This document shows positions 1 to 14,820 of a DNA stretch of 15,168 bases, piece by piece; within the stretch, counting starts at the first letter, position 1, and every line of letters begins with the position of its first letter. The stretch spans positions 1-15,168 of the forward strand of contig JBKHIT010000083.1 of assembly GCA_046538485.1 (NCBI GenBank), given 5' to 3'. This DNA comes from Candidatus Brocadiia bacterium (GTDB lineage Bacteria; Planctomycetota; Brocadiia; SM23-32). The position numbers and the translations under genes were made by a program. Below the pieces are notes generated by a model. The model was not told the DNA's origin and did no database searches. It worked only from the letters and a program-made list of their open reading frames with translations.

Positions 1-244
1 GGGCAGGTATTATCTCCTGCTGAAGTCCTGTGCCTTTCCACGGCACACTGAGAAAAGCGGGTTAGGGATCCGGAAAATGGGTGCCCCGCAGTCTTATTTT
101 TATCTGCAAAAATACCCGTCGGAATCAGAACTGTGCACGCATTTAACCCAAAAAACCGCCGCGCCATTCTATTTCTGCCACTACCCGGGAAAAACAGACC
201 AGCAAAAGGTATCTGTTTGCAAAAGACATGATCGCGGGCGATTC

Positions 245-295: not shown

Positions 296-372
296 GCGCC
301 CGTAGCTCAACTGGACAGAGCGTCGGACTTCGGATCCGATTGTTGGGGGTTCGAATCCTCCCGGGCGTGCCA
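296..372 (+). tRNA. tRNA-Arg, anticodon TCG (UCG)
   Basis: 77-nt cloverleaf. Acceptor stem GCGCCCG/CGGGCGT, discriminator G, encoded CCA. D-arm GCTC..GAGC with GGA (A20 Arg identity element). Anticodon stem TCGGA/TCCGA around loop CT-TCG-GA (anticodon 330-332). T-loop TTCGAAT. Confidence 0.97.
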
Positions 373-788: not shown

Positions 789-1036
789 CCCGCGCCGACC
801 TGAGGGAGCATCGCGGATTCCGCAAGAAAAAACGCGCCATACATCTGCCGACGGGGACGGTATCGCCCGAAGCTCCAGAACCCCCTTTTCCGCCTCTTGC
901 CACAGGCGCAAAAGCGCCTCCGAAGTCTCTGTAAGAGCAGCAGAGTCGCGGAATTCGGCTTGACAAACCTCCAGAGGGTACAATATTACGAACGAGGCGA
1001 AGTTATAATTTCGCTCCATCAAATGGGAAATCTGGG
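556..1036 (+). mobile_element. truncated IS1380-family element (3' portion with probable right end)
   Basis: Transposase tail, then a ~230-nt noncoding tail ending in AAATGGGAAATCTGGG (1021-1036), which resembles IS1380-type right ends. No left end is seen. Confidence 0.55.
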
Positions 1037-1068
1037 TGATTATTCAGAATCTTGCACCTTATAACGAG

Positions 1069-4000
1069 ATGAACGCTCGCAGTCGGTCTGTCCTCGGTGC
1101 AGGCAAGTGGTTCCGCGTGATCATCATTTCCGGGTTGCTTTCTCTGGTGCTGCTGGGAAGCGATTCGTTCGCCGGCGGGCCAGGTCTGGATGAGGTAGAG
1201 GATATCGAGGGTTTTCCCCAGCTTGAGCAAACGCGAACGCCGGTGCAGCGTGAAGTCGAAGCGGAACACATCGCCATCACGTGGCTGAGTAACGTCGTTT
1301 CCTGGGTGGAAGCGGCGAAACAGGGGGAGGAAAGAAAAGTCTCTATCGTCAGGCTGCCCAACAACCGAAAAGGGGTTCGCCTCCACCGGGGGACGGGGAT
1401 TGCGCACAAGGTGGAAATCCCGGAAGCCGGCAGTTACCGCCTCTGGGTTTCCTATCGCGCATCTTCCGGCAGGCGCTCTCCATTCCACCTAAAACTCATT
1501 GGACAGAACACTTTTTCCCACACCTACGGAGCACTCAAGCTGTCCTCACCCTGGGAACAGGCAAGGGAACGGACGGGAGGAATGGGGTCAGGGAATGCGT
1601 ACCGAGAAGGACCGCTCGGCGCCGGCGAGGGGGTTGTGTGGGAGTGTGCGGATGCCGAGTTGCACCGTGGCGAGACGACGATTCGCCTCACGGCGGACGA
1701 TCGTACAGATTCCCCGCCCATCGAGTCCCTGGTAATAACAAAGAGCAAAGAGTTCAAGCCCTCGCGTTCGAGTATGGCGGAGGAGAAGACCTTTGGTCGC
1801 CTGTATCTGCGCGTCCGCCTCAGGGGAGTCCAAGAGCCCGTCGGAGTGAGCGGGCGTATGCTGTACATGAAACGCTTCTCGGGCCCCGGCAGGTACAACG
1901 GTGAATTTACGGGAGGGCTCGGGCACTTTTCCGATCCCGGCAACGCTACACTTACGCCCGGGAAATGGTCCGCGTGGGAAGAGGCCACGTTCCCCCTGAC
2001 AACGGGCGGCAGTTGGGCAATCGGCAGATTCTACATGTCCGGTGGCCCGGATGGGACGATGGACGTGCAGATGGCATGGTATCCGAACAAGGGAGCCGTT
2101 GCGAAGTCCATTTCTACGGTGATTCGGCAGGGCGGGGCCTACGTGCTGCTGCCCGTTTCCAGCAGCGGGTTCGGCGGCAATCCGCGCGATGGATGGACGC
2201 CTCCAGACATGTTCCGCAAATCCACCGTGGCCCGATTCCGCCCCCTGGAAGCCTTGCAAGAGCAGATGGACGGGTATTGTGAACGGGCACTTGAGGCGGT
2301 CGGGGGGGACATCGGCCCCCTCCAACACCTTCAGTTCCACGCGTTCGTCCAGGGGCCTCCGCAGGTGATCGAAGAGTCGGTGTCCCGCCTCAGGCGCATG
2401 GGGCTCAACCGCTTTTCGCCCGGCAAAAGGGAAGGCGACATCTGGTTGAGTTACAGCGGCATCGGCTTCTCCGAGGATCGTCGTAAGACGATCGAAGCGC
2501 AGGCCAGAAGGTGGAAGCGCCACCGAGACGAAAAGGACCACCAGCCACGGTTGGTCAAGCTGGGAGATGAAATCAGCAACTACGCCGGGCCGGGAAAGAT
2601 CAACTCTTCCCCAGAAGGACTCAAGCTCTTCCACAGTTACCTCTCCGACGAGCTTGAGCGGTTGGGCAAAGAGGCTCCGTTCCTGGGGGTCAATGACGTC
2701 CGAGAACTGGTTTGCTACGCCCCGCGGATGGCCGGGTCCGATGATTCAGAATCTGAACCGGACCTTCCTCGTCCCGAGGGGATCACGGATCCCCTCCTCG
2801 GGGATGGGGAGTCGGACGACGCGATGCCGGAACTCGAAGACGAGGAGAAGGCTTCCGCTCCCGGGGAAGGGCAGAAATCCGCTCCCGCCCCTGATGGCGA
2901 GAAGGATATACCCGATTTGGGTCCGGCCGAAACCGAGCGCCTGCGCGTCATGAGCCGGCGCTTCATCACCTGGCTCACGGCCTGGTACTACAGGGGCAAG
3001 ACCGAGGCCATCCGAAAAGCCTTCCCCAAAGCCGATACGTTCACGAATCACGACACCGGTTTTATGTTCGGCAAACACTGCAACCAATTCGACCCGCTCT
3101 GGATCATGAACGTCCGCTACCAGGGCACGACCATGGCTGCGGCGGAGGACTGGGCCTGGCCCAGCAAGGGTGGCACGGCCTCCTGCGGCATCCAGACCGT
3201 CAGCTTCTACGGGGCGATCATGGACTGCGCGGCCCGCGAACACGGGGGGCCCAAGGGCTTTCAAAACATCGCCACGTCCAATCACGCCGCGCGCAAAATC
3301 TTCAGCCTGGTCGGAGAAGGCGTCTTCTTCCAGGACCTGTACAACTATGGGCCTCCTTACTTCCGAAAGGGAGGGACCATAGACTGCTGGGGTCACAAAC
3401 ACTGGGTCTACAAACAGGTCGCCCAGGCCCTGGCCGCGCTCAAGCCGGCCGAAAAGCGTATCGCTGAGGGAACTCCAGACCCTACACGGGTTGCCATGAT
3501 CACCAACCTCTCGGACGACCTGCGGGACGGAGACGTGCCGGGTTTTCTCAAAGATCGGCTGCTGGTCTACCTGGCGCTGCGCCACGCCCAGATGCCAGTC
3601 GATCTGCTGCTGGAACGGGACCTGCGCCGGCAGAGCCAGATTGATCTCAACGCCTACGACGCCATCTACCTGACCGGTATGCGCCTGGAGAGGGAAGCGT
3701 TCGGGGTGCTGAAAGATTGGTGCGAAGCGGGCGGTACCCTGATGGCCACCGGCATGGCTGCAACGCAGGACGAATTCGGCGATTCAATACCGGGGTCCGA
3801 TGCGTTTTTTGGCGCCGGACGGGCGGTTGCGACAATCAATAAAAAGAGCTGGCATCCCGACAACATCCCGAACCTGAAGCCTCTCGGCGAGGCAATGTTC
3901 GAAAAATCCGAGTATGCGCCCGCCACGAGCGTGCCCGTCGTCGGCGTCAGGTACGCGATCCGGCCGGAAGAAGATTGCAGGACATTGGCACACTTTGAGG

Positions 4001-4431
4001 ATGGATCGCCCGCCGCCTCGATGCGGGAGGCGGGCGAAGGACGGGTCATTCTCTACGCATTCCAACCCGGTATGAGTTACCGCTTCGACACGTCGCGACA
4101 GGGTGGGAAGATCTGCGGCTACCGAGACGAGCGCCGCGATGTGATTGCGATGCCGGTGTCGAGAGCCTGCGGTCCTCCCCGCCTCACCAGTTCGTCCCCC
4201 CTGGTCGAAACCACCACCTTTAGCGACGCCGCCGGGCTGGCCGTCCTGCTCAACGATTTCACCTGGGAGGATGAGCGTGAGATGAGAATCACGGTAAGAA
4301 CCGAACGCCCGGTGAAAAACGTGGCTGCCACCCTGGGCAAAGTAAAGAAATGGCAACAGGAGAACGGCAGAGTTCGGATCACGTGTAGCGCTCCGGACCC
4401 CGTTGATGTTATCATTCTGGACTATGAATGA
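1069..4431 (+). CDS. secreted glycoside-hydrolase-like protein with beta-galactosidase (GH42) trimerisation-type domain
   Basis: Long ORF. ATG 1069 (MNARSRS..WFRVIIISGLLSLVLLGSDSFA) gives a Sec signal peptide; the alternative GTG 1036 overlaps the IS end. N-terminal beta-sandwich/CBM-like segment (VEIPEAGSYRLWVSY). Candidate clan GH-A motifs LGDEI and AAEDW. C-terminal RVAMI..VYLALRHAQMPVDLL..YDAIYL..LKDWCEAGGTLM is typical of the GH42 trimerisation (GATase-like) domain. Confidence 0.8.
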   Translation: MNARSRSVLGAGKWFRVIIISGLLSLVLLGSDSFAGGPGLDEVEDIEGFPQLEQTRTPVQREVEAEHIAITWLSNVVSWVEAAKQGEERKVSIVRLPNNRKGVRLHRGTGIAHKVEIPEAGSYRLWVSYRASSGRRSPFHLKLIGQNTFSHTYGALKLSSPWEQARERTGGMGSGNAYREGPLGAGEGVVWECADAELHRGETTIRLTADDRTDSPPIESLVITKSKEFKPSRSSMAEEKTFGRLYLRVRLRGVQEPVGVSGRMLYMKRFSGPGRYNGEFTGGLGHFSDPGNATLTPGKWSAWEEATFPLTTGGSWAIGRFYMSGGPDGTMDVQMAWYPNKGAVAKSISTVIRQGGAYVLLPVSSSGFGGNPRDGWTPPDMFRKSTVARFRPLEALQEQMDGYCERALEAVGGDIGPLQHLQFHAFVQGPPQVIEESVSRLRRMGLNRFSPGKREGDIWLSYSGIGFSEDRRKTIEAQARRWKRHRDEKDHQPRLVKLGDEISNYAGPGKINSSPEGLKLFHSYLSDELERLGKEAPFLGVNDVRELVCYAPRMAGSDDSESEPDLPRPEGITDPLLGDGESDDAMPELEDEEKASAPGEGQKSAPAPDGEKDIPDLGPAETERLRVMSRRFITWLTAWYYRGKTEAIRKAFPKADTFTNHDTGFMFGKHCNQFDPLWIMNVRYQGTTMAAAEDWAWPSKGGTASCGIQTVSFYGAIMDCAAREHGGPKGFQNIATSNHAARKIFSLVGEGVFFQDLYNYGPPYFRKGGTIDCWGHKHWVYKQVAQALAALKPAEKRIAEGTPDPTRVAMITNLSDDLRDGDVPGFLKDRLLVYLALRHAQMPVDLLLERDLRRQSQIDLNAYDAIYLTGMRLEREAFGVLKDWCEAGGTLMATGMAATQDEFGDSIPGSDAFFGAGRAVATINKKSWHPDNIPNLKPLGEAMFEKSEYAPATSVPVVGVRYAIRPEEDCRTLAHFEDGSPAASMREAGEGRVILYAFQPGMSYRFDTSRQGGKICGYRDERRDVIAMPVSRACGPPRLTSSSPLVETTTFSDAAGLAVLLNDFTWEDEREMRITVRTERPVKNVAATLGKVKKWQQENGRVRITCSAPDPVDVIILDYE

Positions 4432-4544: not shown

Positions 4545-5243
4545 ATGGGAAGAACGAGACGAGGTTTCACGCTTATCGAATTGCTGGTTGTCATAGCGAT
4601 CATAGCGATTCTGGCGGCGCTGCTGATGCCGGCGCTCGAGCAGGCTCGGGCCTCGGCTCGGCAGGTGGCCTGCCTGAGCCGCGAACGTCAGTTTTATCTC
4701 GCCGGCACCTTCTACGCGAATGATACCGGCTGGTGGCCGGCCAGTTACGTGAAGAACCCGGACGGCACGGCGCAGACATTCTACGACATCGTCCCGTACC
4801 TCGACATGGGTAGCACGAAAGACGGCCGCAACGTCGGTCCCGCAGAGAACTTCTGGCTCTGCCCGGAGGCGCCGTTCCCCAGGAAGTGGAATAAAAACGA
4901 GTTTCGATATTACGCTTGGGGATACACGCACGTGGGAAACTACTGGACCACCCATTTCTTTGGTTTCAGCGAGACATCTTTCCCCAGCATGATGGTGCCC
5001 GCCAACCGTGTGCCCGCCACGCGCAGGGCACAGCCGAAGTTCGGCAGCGCCAGCAAGATTGTCTGGCTTGGGGAGACCTGCGGCATTACTGCTAACAGGT
5101 GGAAAGGCAGTTGGAACCAGTTGGCCCCCGGCGGACCTGACACATACCACCCGAACGACAGCGCCGACGTGGTCACCATGGACGGCCGAGCCCTTAACGT
5201 GCGGGGATGGGAGGACGCCGGCCTGAAGTTCTATGAGGAGTGA
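4545..5243 (+). CDS. prepilin-type N-terminal cleavage/methylation domain protein (DUF1559 / H-X9-DG-like)
   Basis: [41 protein letters not shown] is a class III signal peptide followed by the DUF1559-type AR..AR...C motif. C-terminal [17 protein letters not shown] upstream of the ATG. Confidence 0.9.
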
Positions 5244-5388
5244 GTTCTCCTTGGTCGAAAGTACACCAGTGGGGCTTTCTCACAGCACCTGGATCACATT
5301 TCGGGGAGCACGCCACCATCTGCATTCAAAAAAGAATTTTCCCCGGACCACTTAGAACTGCGCAAAAGTTGTAAACCCGCTTTTCTCA

Positions 5389-5421
5389 AGCGGCGCCCCC
5401 GGAGGGCGAACCGCTGTTTTT
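5389..5421 (+). terminator. probable intrinsic terminator of the GH/prepilin gene pair
   Basis: AGCGG-CGCCC-ccgga-GGGCG-aa-CCGCT hairpin followed by GTTTTT, ~145 nt after the prepilin stop. Confidence 0.5.
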
Positions 5422-5517
5422 AGACTCAGATTACAGACGGTGTCCCCAGATCAGATGCGAAATATAGTGCAAGGTCTTTCTGGGATGCGGTTTATAATAA
5501 TTATACCTTCAGGTTCG

Positions 5518-5731
5518 GTAGAGTAGAAATGTGGCGCGGTGGCGTTTAGGCCCGGCTTATCTGGGGCTCGCCCTTTCGTCTGCGAGTGCCTCTGGTAGCC
5601 TGACCATGCACTCCGTTTCCACATCCCTCTCGTCAAACCGGACGTGCGAATTTCCCGCATCCGGCTTTCTCTGTTATCAAAGGTAATGCCCGGCTATCGG
5701 CTCGCACCTTCGCCACGCATACCTGACATAC
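5518..5731 (-). ncRNA. miniature ORF-less group II intron derivative, copy 1 (5' end + domain V + domain VI)
   Basis: Minus strand starts GTATGTCAGGTATGCGTGG (GUGYG-like). DV is AAGCCGGAT-GCGG-GAAAT-TCGC-AC-GTCCGGTTT with AGC triad and AC bulge. DVI is GAGAGGGATGTGG..CCACATTTCT-A-CTC with the bulged A 7 nt from the end. Ends CTCTAC. 214 nt. Confidence 0.85.
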
Positions 5732-5813
5732 TCCGCAGCTTCCCGACACTTTCTGGAGTTGTTAGACTCATCGTCAATCTCCTTGCCTTACATGCCGCTT
5801 CCGGCATCTATAC
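5732..5813 (-). pseudogene. remnant of a group II intron-encoded RT/maturase start
   Basis: AAGGAG RBS, then ATG at 5771 giving MSLTTPESVGKLR, which resembles N-termini of bacterial intron RTs (MSLxTPExVxKLQ..). Cut by the IS on one side and the mini-intron on the other. Only 13 codons. Confidence 0.5.
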
Positions 5814-5849
5814 TCAGAGCTCCTTAACCGCTGGAAAATGCGATGGGAC

Positions 5850-8087
5850 CTATTTGGGCGGATCGGTTGAGCCGGCGAAAGAGTATTCCAGTGTGAAGTC
5901 GGTGCCGGGATAGGCTGTTTCTGTCTCATTCAGGTTCTTCAGCAGCTGGCTTATGGCTCTGTTTGCCCGTGGGCTGGCCATGTGATGAATCTGGACCCTC
6001 AGCACGCCTCGGTCCGAATCCGGGATTATGTCGGCCGGGGAGCGATAGAGGTCCCCAAGAAGGCGACGGGCGTCACTGTCTTTACCTGAATGCTCCTTAA
6101 GATACTCCGCCATAGCCGTCTCTGATCGGTACGCTATCATTTTGATCGTATCGGTCAGAAGCTTGCGGCTCGGCGCCAGTTGCTGAAATCTTTCCTCCTC
6201 GCTCAGATCTCCCATCGTTACGTGTTTGTTCTCGTCCCTCCGCTTCTCTTTTAGCTCCTCATGCTCCTTCTCCAGATGCTCGATCTGTTCCCTGAGTTGC
6301 GATTTTCGCCGTTGCCAGTCCTCATAATCTCTCTGCCTGAGCTTCTCGTCCGCGTGCAAACACCCGAACTGATGCTCCGCTCTGTCGAGTTTGGCGCCCG
6401 CTGAACGACATTGCGAGTTCAACTCCCTCCACCTGGGATTTATTACCCGTTGGGGATCAGGTAGGTCCACCGTTTCGTATTCGCTAAGTGCATCTATGGC
6501 AAACTCTTGCATCATGTAGCGGAAGAAGTTTTCCTGGGACCATCTGGTAAAAAGCCACTTGCAATCTTCCGGCTTCAGATTAGCATGCCCCGGACTGATG
6601 ACGCTGACCTGATGGCCCGCCTGGGTCAGTTTTCGCACCTCATCGACCCAAAGAGCGTCCCGGCCGCTGCCTATGAAGCTGCCCCTCTCGGCCAACTTCA
6701 TTTTCACCCGGGCCCCACTGGGCATTCGAATTTCGGTCTCCCGAAACTCCTCCTGCGGCCACTCCCCCCGCGGATACTTGTGATAGGTGATGCAGCATAT
6801 GCGGTGCTGCTGCCACATTTCCCTGAAGAAACCAGGGCTGTATCCCTCCCGGTCAAAAACCATCAGGAAACGCGACAGGTGAGGGTCTTCCTCCAGCTGC
6901 TGCTCGGTGGGCTGATCGGGCACATCTTCCAGCAGCCGGGGCACAACTTCGTAGCGCAGTGTCCTCAGCAGCCCATCGTCCACGGGTTTGGAGACCACGA
7001 AGAACGGGCGTCCGCTCGCATCGTTCACCCAGTAGTCGGTCGTGCCGCGCAGACACAGCCTCTGGCGGGCCACGTAGCGGCGGGGCAGTTTGGCCTTCTT
7101 TCCGTGATAGACCCGCACGTGCCCGTCCACATACAAAACGCCGGTGCGTTCGGGGTGCTGCTCCATCCATTGCCGGCTAAGAAGCGCATGCCACTTCCGG
7201 ACCTGGCCCTTCTGGCTCAGTTCGCCCATTTTCTCTCGCAGGCACCGCACCTCGGGCACCCGACCGGAGCCCCATCACTTTTCCCAGCTCACCCGGCGGC
7301 TCGAAACGAAGGCGTTCCGCGCATCTCATGTGCCACAGGGCCATGTAGGCAAGGAGCAGGAAGATATGAAGCCTCTGGTAGTAGCCGTCCAGCTTCTGAA
7401 AACACCCCTCCAGATGGTCCAGTAGCCCGGCGGCAAGGAGGGCCGGCACAGCACACAGCACACCCCGAACTCCACGCTCCGGCAGGCCTCAAAGCGGGTC
7501 GGAGCCCCGCCGAGGGCCCCCACCGCCGCCATGGCTCTCTCCACCGGCCGGGTGCAGGCGGTTCCCATCTTGGCCTCGGCGTCCTCCTTGTCCCGTTCGG
7601 ATCTCTCTGAGGCTGCCTCGCCCCCCTCGGCGTCTCCTCCCATCTGGCGGATACGGCCATCCTGTATGGCTTTGCTGAGCGTGTTCTATTTTACGCCCAG
7701 ATGGTCGGCCACATCGCCTCGGGCCCACCCCTGCGCAAAGAGCCGCTCTGCATCCTCAATAACAGTCGCAGTAATGACGTTCGCCCCGCGGCTCCGCCTG
7801 GGGGCGTAGAAGGCCTCGATACCTTCCTCTCGGTACTTCTTGACCGCTCGTTTCACACTGTTGGTGCTCACCCCGAAGGTGCGGATGATATCCACCTGCT
7901 TGCACCGCCCCTGACAGTAGAGCTGGCTGGTAAACATGCGGAATGAGGCCGTATCGTCGGCCGCGTGGTGGAAAACGGGATAGGTGCCTACAAGGTAGAA
8001 CCACGTCTCATCTTCGTTGACCACCGATATTCTCTCAGTCAGTCGGGTTGCACCGGCCGGGATAAACGGTAGAATGGCCTGTGGCAT
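5850..8087 (-). pseudogene. large DDE transposase with N-terminal HTH, disrupted by one nonsense codon and two frameshifts
   Basis: Fragments join into one ~745-codon frame: MPQAILP..HTH (KQVDIIRTFGVSTNSVKRAVKKY)..GVK-TAG(7686-7688)-NTLSKA..EFG / frameshift ~7467 / VLCAVPALL..GKVMGL / frameshift ~7268 / RVPEVRCLR..LYVDGH..VFDREG..RWSQENFF (candidate D-D-E)..coiled coil..stop at 5850. Confidence 0.85.
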
Positions 8088-8088
8088 A

Positions 8089-8183
8089 GGTACCTTTCCT
8101 CTCGGTTTTGGCTTTCTGTCTGCAGCAAACAGACGAAAACCGGGGGAAAGGTATCATTTTATTTTCCAATCCGTCACAGGCAA
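8089..8183 (-). promoter_or_regulatory. transposase promoter and RBS-sequestering inverted repeat
   Basis: Minus strand TTGCCT (8183-8178), N16, TAAAAT (8161-8156). Arms 8136-8155 and 8089-8109 form a ~20-bp imperfect stem over the RBS just upstream of ATG 8087. Confidence 0.55.
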
Positions 8184-8281
8184 GTCAAATTCTATTCCCC
8201 CCCTCCCATCCCGAGTCTTAAACACGACTTATGGCATAATCTCCCATCTGATCTCCTCTCAAGAGATCAGGAGTTCTGAGA

Positions 8282-8495
8282 TTATGTCAGGTATGCGTGG
8301 CAAAGGTGCGAGCTGATAGCCGAGCATTACCTTTGATAACAGAGAAAGCCGAATGCGAGAGATCCACACGTTTGGTTTGACGAGAGTGATGTGGAAATGA
8401 AGCGCATGGTCAGGCTACCAAAAGGCACTCGAAGACGAAAGGGCGAGCCCCAGATAAGCGGGGCTAAACGCCACCGCGCCACATTTCTACTCTGC
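8282..8495 (+). ncRNA. miniature ORF-less group II intron derivative, copy 2 (more degenerate)
   Basis: 214 nt, about 21 differences from copy 1 by manual alignment (~90% identical), in inverted orientation. Starts TTATGTCAGG and ends CTCTGC. DV upper stem is mispaired; DVI and the branch A are retained. Confidence 0.8.
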
Positions 8496-8677
8496 CGATC
8501 AGCCCGAATATCCCGGGTAATTAAGCAAAAACAAAATAGATCGTTTCAGAGATTCTGGAGGGGCTTTTGTCGGTGGCGTCTAAAAAGTAGAAGTCTCTGA
8601 AAACGCGCAGGCCACTGACCAATTTTGGTATGTTCCCGGATCGCAGAAAAAGGTGGAAATGAGAGCCCTCTTTTTTT

Positions 8678-11600
8678 TCACAATCCGGAAGATGTCGCTT
8701 CCTTTAGATCTTCTGGTATGGCGGGAGTGGGCGTTTTATCCTCCATACCGCTCGGGCGTGCGTCCTCGGGCAGGCCCGGCTGGCCGGGAGGAATCCGATA
8801 CACTATCTGCAGGTTCTTCCAGTTGTTCTCCACTGCCACCACATACTCGCCATTTTCCCTGAGAAAAGCGTTCACCGCCACCGGTATATCGAGCAGGCTG
8901 GTTTCACCGTAGAGTTTGGGACCCGGGAACATAGTCCCCAGAAACTCCCCGTTTCGGGTATTATACACCCATATCTGCCCTTCACGCGGGGTCGGAGTAG
9001 TCCGTCCAAGAAACAGCAGCTCGCCGGCCACATCCATGCTGCGGAAGACATCAGCCCTCGGGGGGGTTCCCCTGAAGGTCCACGGCAAGTCGATCCGGGT
9101 GCGGACCTCGCGCTTGTCCGGATCGCTCCAGTTATCGTACCGGACCACGGTTGGGCCCACGCCCCACGAATCTTTTTCCCTGTTTCGGCCTTCTTCCCCC
9201 TCAAAATAGTCTTTCGGATGTCCCGCCAGATACATCGTATCGGTGCGGGCGTTATAACGCATTCTCCTTATTGCCTCGTGAGTTCGAGAGGGATGGAAGG
9301 GTTCGGGCTGGCCGTGAAGGACGCCGTTCTTTAATTTAAAGTCGTATAGCGGATTTCCATGTTCGTCGAACCCTTCGAGCGGATACTCCATCAGACCGCC
9401 CGGTTCGGAACGCAGCTTCTTAAAGCCGTTAAAGTGTTCCCATAAGGAACCATCCGACCACAGGTCCCACCTTGACGTATTCTGATGATGCTCCGCCACA
9501 ACGTATTCATCCTCTCGCACCTGTCCGCTGCCGTCTTTATCGCGCCACATAATCCGTGAGGGATTACCGTTGTCAGAGGGCCTGCCCGGCGGATAACTCA
9601 GAGAACTGAGATGTCCGTTCGACAGAAGCACGGAAGGGGCGAAAATATAACTGTCTTCATCTTCCTTCCGCAATATAAGCGTTTCAGTGGACCACGGAGC
9701 GACGAGATAAAGTTTATCATTGGGCAAACGCCGCACGTGTCCCGCAAAGCTCCGGCGATCGGACGGATAACGGCTGTTATCCCTTGTAACGCCCACCCAG
9801 GTATCCAGAGGTCCGTTGCCGCGGCTATAATCGAGGATGAATTTATTGACTCCTCCATGCCCGGAATAAACGACAGTACCGTCATAGGCGGGATCGAAAG
9901 AGGTCCCGTTCATAAACGTGGCCGTGTATCGTTCCCATATTGCACGTCTTTCGGGGTCGAACTGTCGGATAAAGCTGCCTGTAGAGCCCCGGGTACTTAT
10001 GGTTACGCGACCCTGATCGTCCACTCCGACGCCGGAGATCGTATCCAGCCGATCAACCCCTCTGCGCCCCTCTACCGGACCGGCGAAGAGGCCGCCGGGT
10101 TCCCCGATGATCTCCACGCGTTCAGGCTCGGAGCCTCCTATATCGTAAACGAAAACCTGGAGCCTGTCGGGATGTGCATCGGCTACATACAGCCGATTCT
10201 CCGGCCCGCCGAAATCCAGGGCCGACGGCCGTTTTAACTCAGTGATCTCTTCTCCCGTCGGTTCCCCTTCGGCAGTGTACTGCACAATCCGATGCGGGCC
10301 GCGCTCAAGCCAACCGGCGCTGCCTTCAACTTCATCTGTATCCGGTCTCTCCACAACCCAGAGATATCCGTTGTGATCGAGCGCTATCGGGCCGGGGAAA
10401 GCCACCTCGAAACTGTGTTTTACCCGCATGGAATCCACCTCGATTACATGAATTTGGTGGGGTCTTCCCATATCTTCAGACACGAAAAGGGTCTCGCCGT
10501 CGCTGGCGATTCCCCGCGGCTGCTGCGGCGGGCGGTGACGTCTGTCGTCTTCGTAAGGATCTTTTTCTTCAGCCTCTTCTTTAACCTCCCGCAGCATTTG
10601 AGCCGATATGTCCGATTCCCCGGGAGCTGAGGGGTCGGCATTTTCACCCCCCAAGTGATTCGACTGACTGGTGGGATACTCTTCCATAACCTCCTCCGAG
10701 ATTTCTACCAGAGGCAGTATATGGTTGTCCGATCCCACCCCGCCTTGGAAGGGCGCAGGGCGCGTCCATTTTATACTGTAAGTGTATCTGTCGCGATCAG
10801 TCCGTGGGCCGCGACGGTAGTTACGGGTCCTGAATTTATCGAGATGGTATCGTGCCACGCCACGTTTCACACTGCCGTTTTGTTCGAAATTGGAAGGGGC
10901 ATAAACATAGCGGTCATCGCCGCCGATTATTCTGCCCATCCGTTCGGGCACAGCGGCAATTATATCCCCGTCTTCGGAGTAGATAGTCGTATCACGGTGC
11001 CCTTCATCCCAGGGGCTGCTGGTAAGCAGACGTCCGTCCGGAAGGCTGGTAAGGTAGCTTATGGAGGTCTGCATCCATTCCGGGCCTCCTCCCCAGGAAT
11101 TGCCGAACCAACTGCTGCTGTAGCGAAGCCCCTCATCGGAAATCTGGTCTGGAACTGTAAGGTAGTCCGCATCCTTTTTCGGCATCCGCACCCGGGCGGC
11201 CGCCACATCCTTATCGCTCACCGCCACCTCCCCCGAAAGCCGTTTCAGCCCCTCGAGACCGTCGATACGGATGATATTCATCCCGTTTGAACCGGCTACG
11301 GCGTAAACATTCCCATCCTCTGCCTGCACAATGCTGCCTCCGTAGTGACCTCGCCCGAAACGCCATTTGCCCATGTTTTCTCCCTCTCCGGTCTCCCTCG
11401 GATCTCCGGCCGGTGCACCGAAGAGGTTACCCACCAGAAAGCCGTCGCCGGTGTAACAATACCATTCCCCGCCATCGGCGGCGGTAAAGAAAAATTCTTC
11501 ATCCTCAACTTCGATCCGCCCGACGGGGAAATGTTCCTGGTTCAGAACGCCTGGAGGCCTCTCATACCAGTGTCCTTCGCCGTATAGCTCGGCCCGCACG

Positions 11601-14600
11601 GTGTGTTGATTTAAATGTTTCCACAGAACAGTCTCGCCGTTGCTGTCCAACAGACGCGTTCCGGTCATCAGGACCCTCCCCTTATCGTCAGCCCAGGCAC
11701 GGCGCAGGTTTCCCTTGCGGGACAGAAGACGCCGGGTATCGCCGGGGTCAGCATAGGTCTTGACGGTTTCTTTTTTGTCTATATCGTACAGGGGGATGCC
11801 CTGGTCGGTAAAGGAGGTGGGATTCAAGCGCAGGCCCTCATCCCCATCTTCCGCGATGGAAAGCAATGAGAGGTCCTCCCCAACGATCCAGACATCCTCC
11901 TTACCGTTCCCTTCCCATACCCGAACCTCATCCACGTGGGGAGTGCCGTCTCCACGGCGGTCGGACCAGAGAAACAGCGTCGAATACGGGTCCAATCCGC
12001 CGAATTTTTCACGCAGTTCCGGGTATTGCCGCACCGCTTCCCAATCCCCGAGCCGACCGACGACCGCGACCGGTTCGGCCGCGTTATCCCGTTCCAAGGC
12101 CACAGTGGCCACGGATGCCGGCACCTGGTGTGGGGCAACCAGGTAGCGTTCATCCTGGTGGTAAATTGCACGCTCCACCTCGTGGCCGAGCAGTGAGTCA
12201 AGCCGCCAGCTCCGGTCCTCCCAATCAACGGCGAATTTCATCCCTTTATACATCACCACACCCCGGTCGCGCGGGTCCATGAACCCCCCTCCCCCGGCCG
12301 CTCCCCCCAGGAACCACTTATAGGGTTTGCCGTCGGAGCCGAAGCCCATAACCCTTTTCGGATACCTGGTATAATCCGCGACCCAAACCCTGCCGGCACT
12401 GTCAACGTCCACCTGAGCCGGATTCTCGAGTCTTGCCGGATCCCATTCCCCCGGCTGCTGGCCACCCGGGACCCCGAACTTACGCACGAATTCTCCCTCT
12501 GCGGGATCGAACACGTTCACAGTCTTTGAGCCTTTATCGGAGACATAAATATCCCCCTCGGGGCCGAACGTAAAATGCGCCGGATCATCCAATGCTTCTT
12601 GATCGTCCACCACCACCCGGGACTGCTGGTTTTCCTCAAGCGGTACGGTAACTATTCGACCATCCGAGAGGCAATGCAGCGTCCCATCGGCATCAAAGGC
12701 GAGGGCATTCGGATGGGAAAACGGGATACTGCGAACCAGTTCCGCCCTTGCCGCTCCGGCTTCGGAGTCGGGAAGGTCGAGCACCTCAATACGCCGATTT
12801 TCCTCCGGCAGCAACCCCTCCGGATGATCCCCGGCCGCCTCATATGCCACTACAGACTCAATGCCGACCACAGATTCTTTTTCGTTCTCTGAAACTTCAT
12901 TTCCGCTCAGGAAACGCAGCCGTAGCGCTTTGGTGCGCTCCATCCGGCCGAAATCCGCCTGGAAAACAACAGGATTGTGATCTATACGAAATTCACGGAC
13001 GGGTTCCCACCGCTCGGGAGCGTCCAGAGCGTCCTCGACATCTCCATCCCCGGCGCTGGTCCATCTGTCCACAACGACCCTGGCCGGACGTTCACCCCCT
13101 TTTGCGCCGGGTGGCCGGATCAGACTTAATCCGCGGATCTCGCGTTCCCTATCCCATTCCAATCCCATTACCGCCGGCTGCAGTTCGGTGACCATGGAGT
13201 CTTCTCTGCGCACCTGCCAGCCACCGGTGGACGTTTCTTCTCCCTCCCAAAAAACACGCCTGGCATCCGGCGCAATATCCCTCAACCGATGCGCCATTAT
13301 CTGTGAATATTGCAGACGGTCAACCCGATAACGGAGAGCCTTTGTTTCCAGGCCGCCTTCCGGTGCTTGTGCCACCCCTGGGCCGCCATCCTTGTCTTTT
13401 CTCTTAAGCGATATCCATCTTTCATCGAGTGATGCACCCAAAATGGTGTCCAAATCCAAATCCTCGTCATCATCTTTGTCTTCTTCCAAAAAGCTCTCTG
13501 TATCCTCGGCATCCCGAGGGATTGTATCAATAGCCTCCTTCAGCTCAATATCCTCTTCCAAAGCCTGGACCTCAATAGTGTCATCGGGTATTAATACGGA
13601 TCCCACGGTAACTTTTTCTTTAAAACCCACCACGATCCAGCCTTTGTTCTTTCCATCAGTAGGCGCATCGCCGTAGTAGACCTGTTCGGAGCTGGGTAAA
13701 GGTTCATTCGGATAAGAGCGCGTCTCCTCGGGCATCTGTTCGGTAAGGAAGGTCGCATGGTACTTCATCAACTCATCATAAACTCCCCAGCCGTAAGTCT
13801 CATCCTGCCCTTTAGGAGCACGCCTCCCGCCGGGGGCGGAGATGCTGACGATGGGCTGCGAATGCTGCGGGTCCATCTTAGAGGCCGAAAAGGAAGACGC
13901 GAGCCACCTTGAGGGGACGTTTACAGCCCTGTAAAGCCTGCCGTTGCGTACAGCCAGGCCGCCGGAGGCGGGTCCCATGCCCTGATCGTCCCCGGGGCGG
14001 GGAAACGCTTCTGTATCTTGGATGTCATATATCAGTTCTTTTTGAAAATCACGCTGTGGTGCGATCCTGTAAACGGCCGAATCGGTTTGAACGTAAACAT
14101 ATCTTTTGTCGACTGCGATATGAAGGGGCGCCTCCTCATCTTCGGAAAACGCATCGGTTCCCCAAAGCAAATTGCCTTCAAGGTCAAGGGCCACAAGACT
14201 GTAAGCTCCACCGGCATCCGGTGTGCCGATCCATACTATCTCTCCCTGTATGGCAACAATACTGGGTTGGAAACCATAGGGCGCCCTCATCTTGCCATCT
14301 GATTTTCCATCTCCAGGATCATAAATGCTCATTTCTCGCTTAAGATGCAGGGGCGGAAGAACAAAACCTTTCCAAGTATAATGGCCGGGATTCACAAGCC
14401 TTTCTTCATCATCGCGCAAGTCCCAGGGTTCCGTAAATTCTCCTGCCTCCCGCCATTTCTCAGCAATCAGGCGGCGCACGCGCTCGCCGGAATCACTGTT
14501 GAAAATGTCAATGGTAACGTACCCATCCACCGGGATTTGATAGCTTAATTCAAACGGCGAAGCATATTTTTCATTATCACTGGGCCTGCCCTGAACTTGG

Positions 14601-14686
14601 CGAAGCGTAGATATCAGACCACCGGGAGGAGATATCAGAATAAACCCAAACAACAGCAACGCACTGATCCACTTTGTTTTTTTCAT
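8678..14686 (-). CDS. very large secreted protein: FlgD Ig-like domain plus NHL/beta-propeller repeats, two-module fusion
   Basis: Uninterrupted ORF (open to 14806). The likely start ATG 14686 (MKKTKWISALLLFGFILISPP) gives a signal peptide and 2002 aa. FlgD-like segment ELSYQIPVDGYVTIDIFN..RVRRLI..WDLRDDEERLVNPGHYTWK. NHL-like repeats (PNALAFDADGTL, PAHFTFGPEGDIYVSD, PAQVDVDSAGRVWVAD, PRGIASDGETLFVSE, PGPIALDHNGYLWVVE). Function unknown. Confidence 0.85.
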   Translation of the reverse strand: MKKTKWISALLLFGFILISPPGGLISTLRQVQGRPSDNEKYASPFELSYQIPVDGYVTIDIFNSDSGERVRRLIAEKWREAGEFTEPWDLRDDEERLVNPGHYTWKGFVLPPLHLKREMSIYDPGDGKSDGKMRAPYGFQPSIVAIQGEIVWIGTPDAGGAYSLVALDLEGNLLWGTDAFSEDEEAPLHIAVDKRYVYVQTDSAVYRIAPQRDFQKELIYDIQDTEAFPRPGDDQGMGPASGGLAVRNGRLYRAVNVPSRWLASSFSASKMDPQHSQPIVSISAPGGRRAPKGQDETYGWGVYDELMKYHATFLTEQMPEETRSYPNEPLPSSEQVYYGDAPTDGKNKGWIVVGFKEKVTVGSVLIPDDTIEVQALEEDIELKEAIDTIPRDAEDTESFLEEDKDDDEDLDLDTILGASLDERWISLKRKDKDGGPGVAQAPEGGLETKALRYRVDRLQYSQIMAHRLRDIAPDARRVFWEGEETSTGGWQVRREDSMVTELQPAVMGLEWDREREIRGLSLIRPPGAKGGERPARVVVDRWTSAGDGDVEDALDAPERWEPVREFRIDHNPVVFQADFGRMERTKALRLRFLSGNEVSENEKESVVGIESVVAYEAAGDHPEGLLPEENRRIEVLDLPDSEAGAARAELVRSIPFSHPNALAFDADGTLHCLSDGRIVTVPLEENQQSRVVVDDQEALDDPAHFTFGPEGDIYVSDKGSKTVNVFDPAEGEFVRKFGVPGGQQPGEWDPARLENPAQVDVDSAGRVWVADYTRYPKRVMGFGSDGKPYKWFLGGAAGGGGFMDPRDRGVVMYKGMKFAVDWEDRSWRLDSLLGHEVERAIYHQDERYLVAPHQVPASVATVALERDNAAEPVAVVGRLGDWEAVRQYPELREKFGGLDPYSTLFLWSDRRGDGTPHVDEVRVWEGNGKEDVWIVGEDLSLLSIAEDGDEGLRLNPTSFTDQGIPLYDIDKKETVKTYADPGDTRRLLSRKGNLRRAWADDKGRVLMTGTRLLDSNGETVLWKHLNQHTVRAELYGEGHWYERPPGVLNQEHFPVGRIEVEDEEFFFTAADGGEWYCYTGDGFLVGNLFGAPAGDPRETGEGENMGKWRFGRGHYGGSIVQAEDGNVYAVAGSNGMNIIRIDGLEGLKRLSGEVAVSDKDVAAARVRMPKKDADYLTVPDQISDEGLRYSSSWFGNSWGGGPEWMQTSISYLTSLPDGRLLTSSPWDEGHRDTTIYSEDGDIIAAVPERMGRIIGGDDRYVYAPSNFEQNGSVKRGVARYHLDKFRTRNYRRGPRTDRDRYTYSIKWTRPAPFQGGVGSDNHILPLVEISEEVMEEYPTSQSNHLGGENADPSAPGESDISAQMLREVKEEAEEKDPYEDDRRHRPPQQPRGIASDGETLFVSEDMGRPHQIHVIEVDSMRVKHSFEVAFPGPIALDHNGYLWVVERPDTDEVEGSAGWLERGPHRIVQYTAEGEPTGEEITELKRPSALDFGGPENRLYVADAHPDRLQVFVYDIGGSEPERVEIIGEPGGLFAGPVEGRRGVDRLDTISGVGVDDQGRVTISTRGSTGSFIRQFDPERRAIWERYTATFMNGTSFDPAYDGTVVYSGHGGVNKFILDYSRGNGPLDTWVGVTRDNSRYPSDRRSFAGHVRRLPNDKLYLVAPWSTETLILRKEDEDSYIFAPSVLLSNGHLSSLSYPPGRPSDNGNPSRIMWRDKDGSGQVREDEYVVAEHHQNTSRWDLWSDGSLWEHFNGFKKLRSEPGGLMEYPLEGFDEHGNPLYDFKLKNGVLHGQPEPFHPSRTHEAIRRMRYNARTDTMYLAGHPKDYFEGEEGRNREKDSWGVGPTVVRYDNWSDPDKREVRTRIDLPWTFRGTPPRADVFRSMDVAGELLFLGRTTPTPREGQIWVYNTRNGEFLGTMFPGPKLYGETSLLDIPVAVNAFLRENGEYVVAVENNWKNLQIVYRIPPGQPGLPEDARPSGMEDKTPTPAIPEDLKEATSSGL

Positions 14687-14792
14687 GGTATTAGTCTCAA
14701 AAATTAATTCGTTTCTCTCATAAGTTCGCGTACCCCATAGATGGCATAAGACACACGCCGCGGTATGCTCGACCATATTCAGGCGAGTTTCC

Positions 14793-14820
14793 ACTATAAT
14801 TCCCACTCTTACTTTTTCAA
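14793..14820 (-). promoter_or_regulatory. candidate sigma70 promoter for the large gene
   Basis: Minus strand TTGAAA (14820-14815), N16, TATAGT (14798-14793), in AT-rich DNA. It overlaps the ORF-track start at 14806, which supports the later ATG. Confidence 0.45.

Follow-up and report, generated by a model that had tools for sequence, protein, structure and literature searches.

Truncated ORF-less group II introns at the two ends of a decayed insertion sequence in Candidatus Brocadiia

The group II intron RmInt1 homes into an insertion sequence (IS). Homing of group II introns into other mobile elements has also been described more generally (PMC4181065), and truncated copies of bacterial group II introns are documented (Zimmerly and Semper 2015, PMC4424553). 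ORF-less introns of Thermosynechococcus share their deletion breakpoints and are mobilised in trans by related intron proteins (IEPs), and 3' fragments as well as an IS-interrupted intron are present in this system (Mohr, Ghanem and Lambowitz 2010, PMC2882425).

The window, i.e. the whole stretch of 15,168 nucleotides that was analysed (contig JBKHIT010000083.1, assembly GCA_046538485.1), contains remnants of introns whose organisation resembles that of TeI3 from T. elongatus, for which TeI4 provides the "driver" proteins. Common to both are the deletion of the domain IV ORF with the same breakpoints in all copies, the retention of DIVa together with the first ORF codons, the localization of copies at different sites with good EBS/IBS pairing, and the presence of 3' fragments and of an IS-interrupted copy in the genome. 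In contrast to TeI3 as described, we found three loci instead of the 17 in T. elongatus, a 62-nt hairpin that replaces the ORF and is followed on its 3' side by no detectable remnant of it, an assembly without an intact gene for a cognate protein, and a planctomycete-type host genome (DUF1559/N_methyl proteins). The two intron copies of the window, designated A and B, match the truncated copies described in PMC4424553 with nothing essential different, but the way in which two 3' fragments are paired in inverse orientation about a single IS is unusual, albeit derived. As in other introns that home into mobile elements, the family inserts outside genes, into the terminal repeat of a mobile repeat that is present in multiple copies, whereas the target is a MITE-like repeat of ~160 bp and not a transposase-coding IS. 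Copies A and B are thus ordinary mobile-element debris from group II introns of an already known, gene-less type.

The region from 5376 to 8495 is very probably a nest of dead mobile elements that contains no pair of miniature introns (Table 1). The original prediction had described two 214-nt copies with ~90% identity, and this repeat pair is real. The copies at 5518-5731 (minus strand) and 8282-8495 (plus strand) are inverted and 91% identical over 212 nt, far above chance (E 5.6e-79 in a search of the 5.2-Mb genome), and the inverted arms as a whole comprise 5515-5733 and 8280-8498. The predicted domain V, with its catalytic AGC and a two-base bulge, and domain VI, with a bulged A and an AY 3' end, were also confirmed: RF00029 (domains V-VI) matches copy A with 48.9 bits (gathering 40), and copy B, in which two pairs of the DV helix are broken, with 26.1 bits (E 0.03), i.e. 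below gathering. The claim of intron-precise boundaries holds for the 3' ends, where the similarity between A and B is lost 3 nt (CGA) past ...CTCTAC and ...CTCTGC, respectively; the outer flanks have only CG(A) in common and show no duplication. It fails for the 5' boundary, because copy A runs on upstream and copy B abuts the IS terminus at 8279/8280.

Table 1. Features of the mobile-element nest and of a further intron end in the window
Feature	Position	Strand	Basis or remark
Further group II intron 5' end (48->1), off contig start; 5' exon CTAACCCGCTTTTCTCA (65->49)	1..65	-	
~160-bp MITE-like repeat, whose body and right terminal repeat form the 3' exon of copy A	5376..5517	-	BLAST
Copy A, 5'-truncated ORF-less group II intron fragment (~intron nt 470-765)	5518..5813	-	RF00029; C79 + G005:C3 alignment; consensus fold
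Copy A, long DVI	about 5518-5631	-	intron-precise 3' end at 5518
Copy A, DV	about 5635-5667	-	
Copy A, 62-nt ORF-replacing hairpin	5670-5731; helix about 5675-5730	-	
Copy A, DIVa hairpin with remnants of first ~13 IEP codons	about 5735-5798	-	
Insertion sequence, ~2.47 kb, decayed Transposase_29 gene	5814..8279	-	PF21804; TIR comparison; run contigs
Transposase, C-terminal part	7259-5850	-	
Transposase, N-terminal HTH part, ends in TAG	8087-7686	-	read over 8300-7180; frameshifted stretch next
Copy B, 5'-truncated fragment of the same ORF-less intron (intron nt 551-765)	8280..8495	+	RF00029; C79 identity
Copy B, 62-nt hairpin, decaying DV, DVI	DV about 8346-8378; 3' end at 8495	+	

The key to the nature of the repeat is a third copy on contig C79, which forms part of a 765-nt group II intron that is complete but ORF-less (C79:8832-9596). 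This intron starts with GTGCG, is recognised by RF02003 (D1-D4, 60.4 bits, gathering 49) and RF00029 (37.1 bits), and its EBS1 (ATTAGG) pairs at six of six positions with the 5' exon (CCTAAT). The 214-mer corresponds to nt 553-765. The proposed intron 5' terminus GTATG/TTATG (GTATGTCAGGTATGCG) is accordingly nt 553 within the C79 intron, and the segment regarded as a 5' end fused to DV-DVI is the domain IV hairpin (nt 553-614) directly upstream of DV; in the alignment with C79 the first ~35 nt of the repeat, like the rest of this segment, map to domain IV, an outcome that the original prediction had itself named as refuting it. Copies A and B are 90% and 89% identical to C79:9312-9598 and C79:9382-9598, respectively. 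The BLAST match of copy A reaches 5802, and the intron match probably extends to 5813, i.e. ~82 nt upstream of the claimed start; in contigs from other runs the match continues up to 5814 and is followed by intron-like sequence. The 214-nt stretch therefore does not represent a unit: the C79 copy is internal, copy A extends further upstream, and copy B adjoins the IS terminus.

One lineage has lost its reverse-transcriptase (RT) gene, the ~1.3-kb ORF in domain IV being replaced by the conserved 62-nt hairpin. The ORF-containing relative G024:C70 (1993 nt), which encodes an IEP of 437 aa with RVT_1 and GIIM, aligns to nt 1-529 and 615-765 of the C79 intron with its ORF in between, and ORF-containing relatives carry the RT gene at the domain IV site of the hairpin. 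A complete intron from another genus (G005:C3:62-822, 761 nt) exhibits the same ORF-less architecture and is 74% identical over nt 2-765; in the consensus fold of the 62 nt, four pairs are changed on both sides in G005. The large internal deletion that was proposed to be shared by the copies stands only in this sense, as the common ORF-less domain IV of a 765-nt parent, which occurs at three loci in this genome and at one in the other genus. The ORF-less copies have three different 3' flanks, and the form without a protein gene, although not a 214-nt miniature, has indeed been copied and has spread. The expected full-length parent exists, but its 5' end reads GTGCG and not GTATG.

The 5' ends of the family proper are GTGCGCCGTG.../GTGTGCCGTG... 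(GTGCG/GTGTG-CCGTG). EBS1/IBS1 pairing is complete (6/6) in C79, C113, C117 and G024, which are all introns readable on both sides (n=4), and involves three different sequence pairs. The intron end at the start of the window has a 5' exon that looks like a MITE terminal repeat; over the first 48 nt this intron does not differ from copies at the contig ends C117, C98 and C73. The near-identity of the 5' ends on these four contigs points to intron copies that are missing from the assembly, a fragmented bin. A 75-nt 3' fragment without an adjoining IS is located at C20:69-143. C104:2235-2382 was considered as a propagated mini-intron and rejected, since it is a single-copy 148-nt deletion remnant, made up of ~98 nt from the start and ~50 nt from the end of an intron. 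C104 has 55 nt in common with the ends of contigs C76 and C88; in G127:C84 these 55 nt are the normal DVI end of a full-length RT-coding subfamily, and both contigs accordingly end in ordinary introns.

Neither copy of the window retains the 5' GUGYG terminus or a domain I with exon-binding sites, Rfam models of D1-D4 have no match within 5300-8700 even at E<=1, and there is no RT ORF in or adjoining the copies, the ORF between them being that of the transposase. Copies A and B lack domains I-III and should therefore be unable to splice or move. By their sequence they are dead fragments without function, and DV of copy B is already decaying.

The element between the copies is an IS whose transposase matches PF21804 (Transposase_29) with an E value of 1.2e-150 over profile positions 103-559 of 562; the upstream transposase piece is matched by HTH_28/HTH_23. 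Its terminal inverted repeats are imperfect (TCAGAGCTCCT.. and TCAGAACTCCT.., 12/16). There is no direct repeat at its flanks that would represent a target-site duplication, as expected if the element has been rearranged. A second IS end, preserved as a remnant on C53, likewise ceases to be similar at base 8279. Both 5813/5814 and 8279/8280 are bridged by contigs of run X1, and other runs provide loose ends at 5814 and 8279. Tblastn found the transposase as a single copy in the genome and no match on plasmids, and among 31 genomes of the family the IS end is limited to this genome (window and C53 remnant) plus one weak match.

On its outer side, copy A adjoins the MITE-like repeat, which has the ends CCCGCATTTCTCA ... 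TGAGAAAAGCGGG. BLAST gives over 15 matches to this repeat across the genome, the majority of them ending exactly at 5517. The 17 aligned rows comprise 11 uninterrupted sites, four with an intron 3' end at this position, and two with introns elsewhere. Moreover, five of eight intron 5' flanks and four of six intron 3' flanks correspond to the MITE terminal repeat. The natural homing site of the intron family is TTTCTCA^CGAACC within the terminal repeat, and the contig end of C88 suggests that both inverted MITE ends are open to intron insertion. The junction between MITE and intron at 5517/5518 is represented in a Logan contig with only 28 nt on the intron side, which is no formal bridge. Copy B resides at a non-MITE site with the 3' flank CGATCAGCCCG.

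Copies A and B comprise the 3'-terminal ~296 and ~216 nt, respectively, of two ORF-less introns at different target sites, and each of them ends exactly at one terminus of the IS. In the proposed scenario, the protein of an ORF-containing relative would have spread the ORF-less introns in trans, and the IS would later have landed in domain IV of such introns. Recombination of two IS copies, or inversion of a segment by intramolecular transposition, would then have brought two 3' intron parts into inverted orientation. This layout requires two separate joins between an IS end and domain IV, at nt ~470 and nt 551; the assembly yielded neither a reciprocal product nor a second full copy of the IS. 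Also against the scenario, copy B starts at nt 551, only a few bases away from where the ORF deletion has its 5' breakpoint, a coincidence that is accounted for only insofar as both lie at the 3' foot of DIVa.

The idea that the 214-nt copies are miniature introns complete in themselves, copied in a MITE- or SINE-like manner by the RNP of a full-length intron, has in its favour that both boundaries are shared within 2-3 nt and the 3' ends are intron-precise. Moreover, the 62-nt segment has a z of 2.6 against the 5' end of G024 and contains a 16-nt stretch resembling the 5' terminal hairpin of that intron (14/16), a score that is also reached by 15 of 500 shuffles. The same segment does not resemble the 5' end of the parent intron (z = 0), so that its origin as a copied intron 5' end is unsupported, and its derivation from the 3' end of the ORF was likewise rejected (last 143 nt of G024 before DV, z 1.2, 90/500 shuffles). 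It occurs at only three loci in the genome, none of which (0/3) has a free 5' junction at GTATG, and among 132 genomes of the class there is no further copy of the miniature, the segment being present in two of them, both times within longer introns. A metagenome pattern scan yielded 76 loci, with some DV-DVI similarity in two, the segment in none and an ORF-less domain IV context in none. Together with the position inside the 765-nt intron, the upstream continuation of copy A and the IS terminus at copy B, this makes propagating miniature introns very improbable. Comparably improbable is a composite transposon 5518-8495 that moves as a unit with the repeats as its termini. Inverted arms of 214-219 bp do lie on either side of a transposase gene, but their identity is no more than ~90%, short inverted termini that belong to the IS itself lie inside them, and the outer flanks show no duplication. 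The IS end on C53 and a contig of run X3 continue with unrelated DNA without an intron arm right after 8279, a second composite copy is missing, and the transposase gene is broken.

Two explanations concern the origin of the junctions. Synthesis of group II intron cDNA begins at the intron 3' end, and aborted reverse transcription at or near a stable, protein-bound DIVa, comparable to LINEs, would be expected to leave 3' fragments with precise 3' ends; the IS would then adjoin them for other reasons. The start of copy B at the 3' foot of DIVa and the C20 fragment, which exists without an IS, would fit this scenario. The truncation points of both copies, however, coincide to the base with the termini of one and the same IS. 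Such an outcome follows by definition when an IS inserts, and the double coincidence that abortive cDNA synthesis would require renders this origin improbable, if still the least so of the alternatives. A chimeric contig joined via repeated intron sequence might be suspected, since the bin is fragmented and its contigs are interrupted at copies of the intron. The arms, however, differ at ~10% of their positions, hence they are no fold-back of one sequence, and Logan contigs of run X1, which may be the source sample and thus a second assembler rather than a second sample, cover 5735-6164, 6135-7569 and 7540-8312 without differences. An assembly artefact is therefore the most remote of all readings, and truncation at the termini of a rearranged IS is retained as the explanation for both copies.

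The protein that served the ORF-less introns was probably supplied in trans by a related ORF-containing intron, as in Thermosynechococcus. Against this, no intact cognate IEP gene was found in the assembled genome (88% complete). In the same intron family, the IEP of C113 is a 335-aa frame without the N-terminal ~120 residues, C97 carries only a piece of an IEP at the contig end, and three further RT genes are distant (32-36% identity). It is conceivable, though rather doubtful, that the 765-nt lineage is still alive and exploits its ORF-containing relatives as a trans-mobilised parasite, which shares the MITE homing site with them and has reached new sites by retargeting of EBS1; if so, one parasite would exploit a second one on a third. 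As part of this reading, the IS may have a preference for the foot of the DIVa hairpin as target. The analysis corrects an attractive but wrong reading, as no miniature, SINE-like group II intron is present, and beyond annotation the locus carries little weight. Nevertheless, the clear homing site in the MITE terminal repeat with its many empty sites would make the family well suited as a natural system in which to study trans-mobilisation, provided that an intact gene for the protein is recovered.

The window does contain two inverted 214-nt repeats, copy A on the minus strand at 5518-5731 and copy B on the plus strand at 8282-8495. They share 91% identity over 212 nt, with inverted arms at 5515-5733 and 8280-8498. 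Their similarity ends 3 nt beyond the intron 3' end, as claimed in the original prediction, which took both repeats for miniature introns. The 3' ends are intron-precise and located at different targets, and copies A and B are therefore independent insertions. Copy A matches the Rfam domain V-VI model RF00029 with 48.9 bits (gathering score 40); copy B reaches 26.1 bits (E 0.03), which is under the gathering score, and two pairs of its DV helix are broken in a four-sequence alignment. Domain VI is unusually long in all DV-DVI copies (~110 nt with a branched insertion, e.g. window 5518-5631), and across genera it is far better conserved (~91-96% identity) than domains I-III (69-78%).

Searched with the 214-mer, the genome to which the window belongs (143 contigs, 88% complete) yielded six matches at E <= 0.001. 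Three of them span at least 211 nt, namely copies A and B and C79:9384-9596, which falls within a complete 765-nt intron without an ORF (C79:8832-9596). This parent intron starts with GTGCGCCGTG, scores 60.4 bits against RF02003 (group II D1-D4; gathering 49) and 37.1 bits against RF00029, and its EBS1 loop ATTAGG pairs with all of the final six 5' exon bases (CCTAAT; 6/6). The GTATG that had been proposed as the intron 5' start corresponds to its nt 553, i.e. to an internal position.

A relative from another genus of the same taxonomic family harbors an intron with an ORF (G024:C70, 2095 to 103; 1993 nt). It encodes a 437-aa protein with RVT_1 and the maturase domain GIIM, in which no endonuclease domain was found. 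C79 nt 1-529 align with G024 nt 1-523 and C79 nt 615-765 with G024 nt 1844-1993, hence the RT gene occupies the exact place of ~85 nt in C79. The consensus fold of four sequences (the C79 intron, copies A and B, and G005:C3, a 761-nt counterpart in another genus) contains two hairpins 5' of DV. In G024 the loop of the first hairpin contains, as read from the sequence, both GGAG and the ORF's initiating ATG; established group II biology marks this hairpin as DIVa, the main protein-binding site. Copy A, again as read from the sequence, retains codons that look like the protein's first 13. The second hairpin corresponds to the first 62 nt of the 214-mer and is kept in the other genus (G005), where four pairs are changed on both sides.

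Contigs of three sequencing runs (X1, X2 and X4; at least 90% likeness) match DIVa as far as 5735-5737 before they depart, and the reverse complement of their loose ends translates to LHAKAKD vs ALHAKAKE in the G024 protein; DV-matching contigs (at least 90% likeness) diverge at 5666-5669. Because of these departures on both sides, the 62 nt are the ORF replacement in the ORF-less lineage. The segment originally regarded as the intron 5' end thus maps to domain IV, which refutes the original prediction on its own terms. Neither the end of the G024 ORF region (z 1.2) nor the 5' end of the parent intron itself (z 0) is significantly similar to the segment. The motif GTGGCAAAGG, located within the 62-nt hairpin (window 5731-5670), is unchanged among the four ORF-less copies and looks like CGTGGGAAAGGCGCGA of the 5' terminal hairpin (G024 nt 7-22), a statistically weak likeness, as the 14/16 match was equally high in 15 of 500 shuffles.

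The DNA between the two copies is an insertion sequence (IS). Its ORF at 7259-5850 (minus strand) matches Pfam PF21804 (Transposase_29; E 1.2e-150, profile positions 103-559 of 562), and helix-turn-helix domains are located on the piece 8087-7686. A TAG at 7688-7686 and a frameshift interrupt the transposase gene, and no second copy was found in its own genome. Imperfect inverted termini (12/16) begin at 5814 and 8279. A related IS-end remnant on C53 is similar to exactly 8279, followed by unrelated DNA, and a contig of run X3 likewise leaves the window sequence at 8279; the remnant retains only about the first 17 transposase codons. The termini, the remnant and the X3 contig fix the extent of the IS to ~5814-8279, and copies A and B therefore each start at an IS terminus. 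According to BLAST, the upstream match of copy A to the C79 intron extends to 5802; it probably reaches 5813, because intron-matching contigs of other samples lose the window match at 5814. Logan contigs of run X1, which may be the source sample, cover 5735-6164, 6135-7569 and 7540-8312 with zero differences, thus bridging both IS/intron junctions.

As one IS cannot enter two introns simultaneously, the two inverted 3' parts require two IS-to-intron joins and a rearrangement. This could have been a recombination between two IS copies in opposite orientation, each inside an intron; alternatively, the IS may have transposed intramolecularly, with inversion, into another intron nearby. A fold-back duplication as source of the inverted copies is unlikely, since the similarity stops at the intron 3' end and never enters the flanks. 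No reciprocal product of the rearrangement was found in the assembly. The junction of copy B (nt 551) lies within a few bases of the point at the 3' foot of DIVa where the ORF deletion begins.

Copy A is followed on its 3' side (minus strand, 5517 to 5376) by a repeat with more than 15 genome copies. It has inverted ends (CCCGCATTTCTCA ... TGAGAAAAGCGGG) and a MITE-like appearance. It measures ~160 bp, contains a TATAAT-rich stretch in its interior and is apparently flanked by 4-bp repeats (TTAA, GGAA); C76 and C88 carry longer variants. Introns of the family home into this repeat, and its right end seems to be a target as well, judging from the C88 contig end. In the homing-site alignment, 11 of the 17 rows are uninterrupted (TTTCTCA/CGAACC or TTTCTAC/CGAACC), four carry the intron 3' end at the site (copy A, C20, C113, C76) and two represent introns elsewhere (C79, copy B). 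The matching sequence TTAGCCCGCAT(A/T)TT(C)TCA precedes five of the eight intron 5' ends, one of which (window 48 to 1) belongs to an intron running off the contig. This end (window 1-65, minus strand) is preceded by CTAACCCGCTTTTCTCA, which resembles the MITE terminal repeat; the identical 48 nt terminate contigs C117, C98 and C73, and the assembly therefore breaks at the multi-copy intron. EBS1 and the 5' exon co-vary in each of the four introns where both are readable (TGAAAT/ATTTCA twice, ATTAGG/CCTAAT, TCCAAT/ATTGGA). These introns have genuinely retrohomed, and many of the family's sites are empty.

The features are compiled in the table; proteins combining an N-terminal methylation motif with DUF1559 are typical of Planctomycetes.

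Coordinates of features in the window and of related loci
Feature	Location	Strand	Remarks
tRNA-Arg, anticodon TCG	296-372	+	Rfam 65.6 bits, ARAGORN agrees
1131-aa ORF	1036-4431	+	zero Pfam matches
N-terminal methylation motif protein	4545-5243	+	weak DUF1559 match
2042-aa ORF	8678-14806	-	NHL repeats
First hairpin	C79 nt ~485-549; window ~5735-5798		consensus fold
Second hairpin (62-nt segment)	window 5670-5731		consensus fold
MITE-like repeat, examples	window 5376-5517; C125:13246-13389; C119:13557-13698
Solo IS-end remnant	C53:17923-18175		75% identical to window 8032-8280
214-mer match	C113		covers nt 63-214
214-mer match	C20		covers nt 141-214
214-mer match	C10		nt 66-107 only
Defective intron	C113:35210-36823		1614 nt; RT frame N-truncated, corresponds to G024 nt 851 onward
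Intron piece at contig end	C97:165402-165872		same start point as C113 form
Internally deleted intron remnant	G000:C104:2235-2382 (L150:436-583)		148 nt; non-MITE site

The sole element of the genome that resembles the idea of a miniature intron is the C104 remnant, whose two parts, the first ~98 nt and the last ~50 nt of an intron, meet at an AAC microhomology. Contigs C76 and C88 terminate in the same 55 nt. A propagated mini-intron was rejected, because in another genome (G127:C84) those 55 nt come after a normal DV and RT gene and are the usual 3' terminus of introns in a full-length subfamily. The C104 remnant is a single deletion product that was not propagated.

The ORF-less domain IV segment occurs in two of the 132 genomes of the class, with three loci in the window's own genome, and in none of 76 metagenome pattern hits. 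G005 harbors a piece and a single full copy of 761 nt, whose first base is mutated and whose EBS1 loop is deleted. That copies at different sites have their breakpoints in common points to copying of the ORF-less form itself. This shared-breakpoint argument was also made, and tested by experiment, for the TeI3 introns of Thermosynechococcus, whose genome likewise has 3' fragments and an IS-interrupted intron (PMC2882425). An intact cognate protein gene is not assembled in the window's own genome (88% complete): the RT frame on C113 lacks ~120 N-terminal residues, C97 contains a piece at the contig end, and the identity of the three remaining RT genes is as low as 32-36%. This N-truncated form may exist in two copies, because the C97 piece starts at the same point as C113.

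The window carries an IS pseudogene, a MITE and the truncated, inactive remains of a group II intron that has no ORF. ORF-less introns are rare in bacteria and nearly always co-resident with related introns, as stated in a review (PMC4424553), and the 765-nt lineage falls within this already known class.
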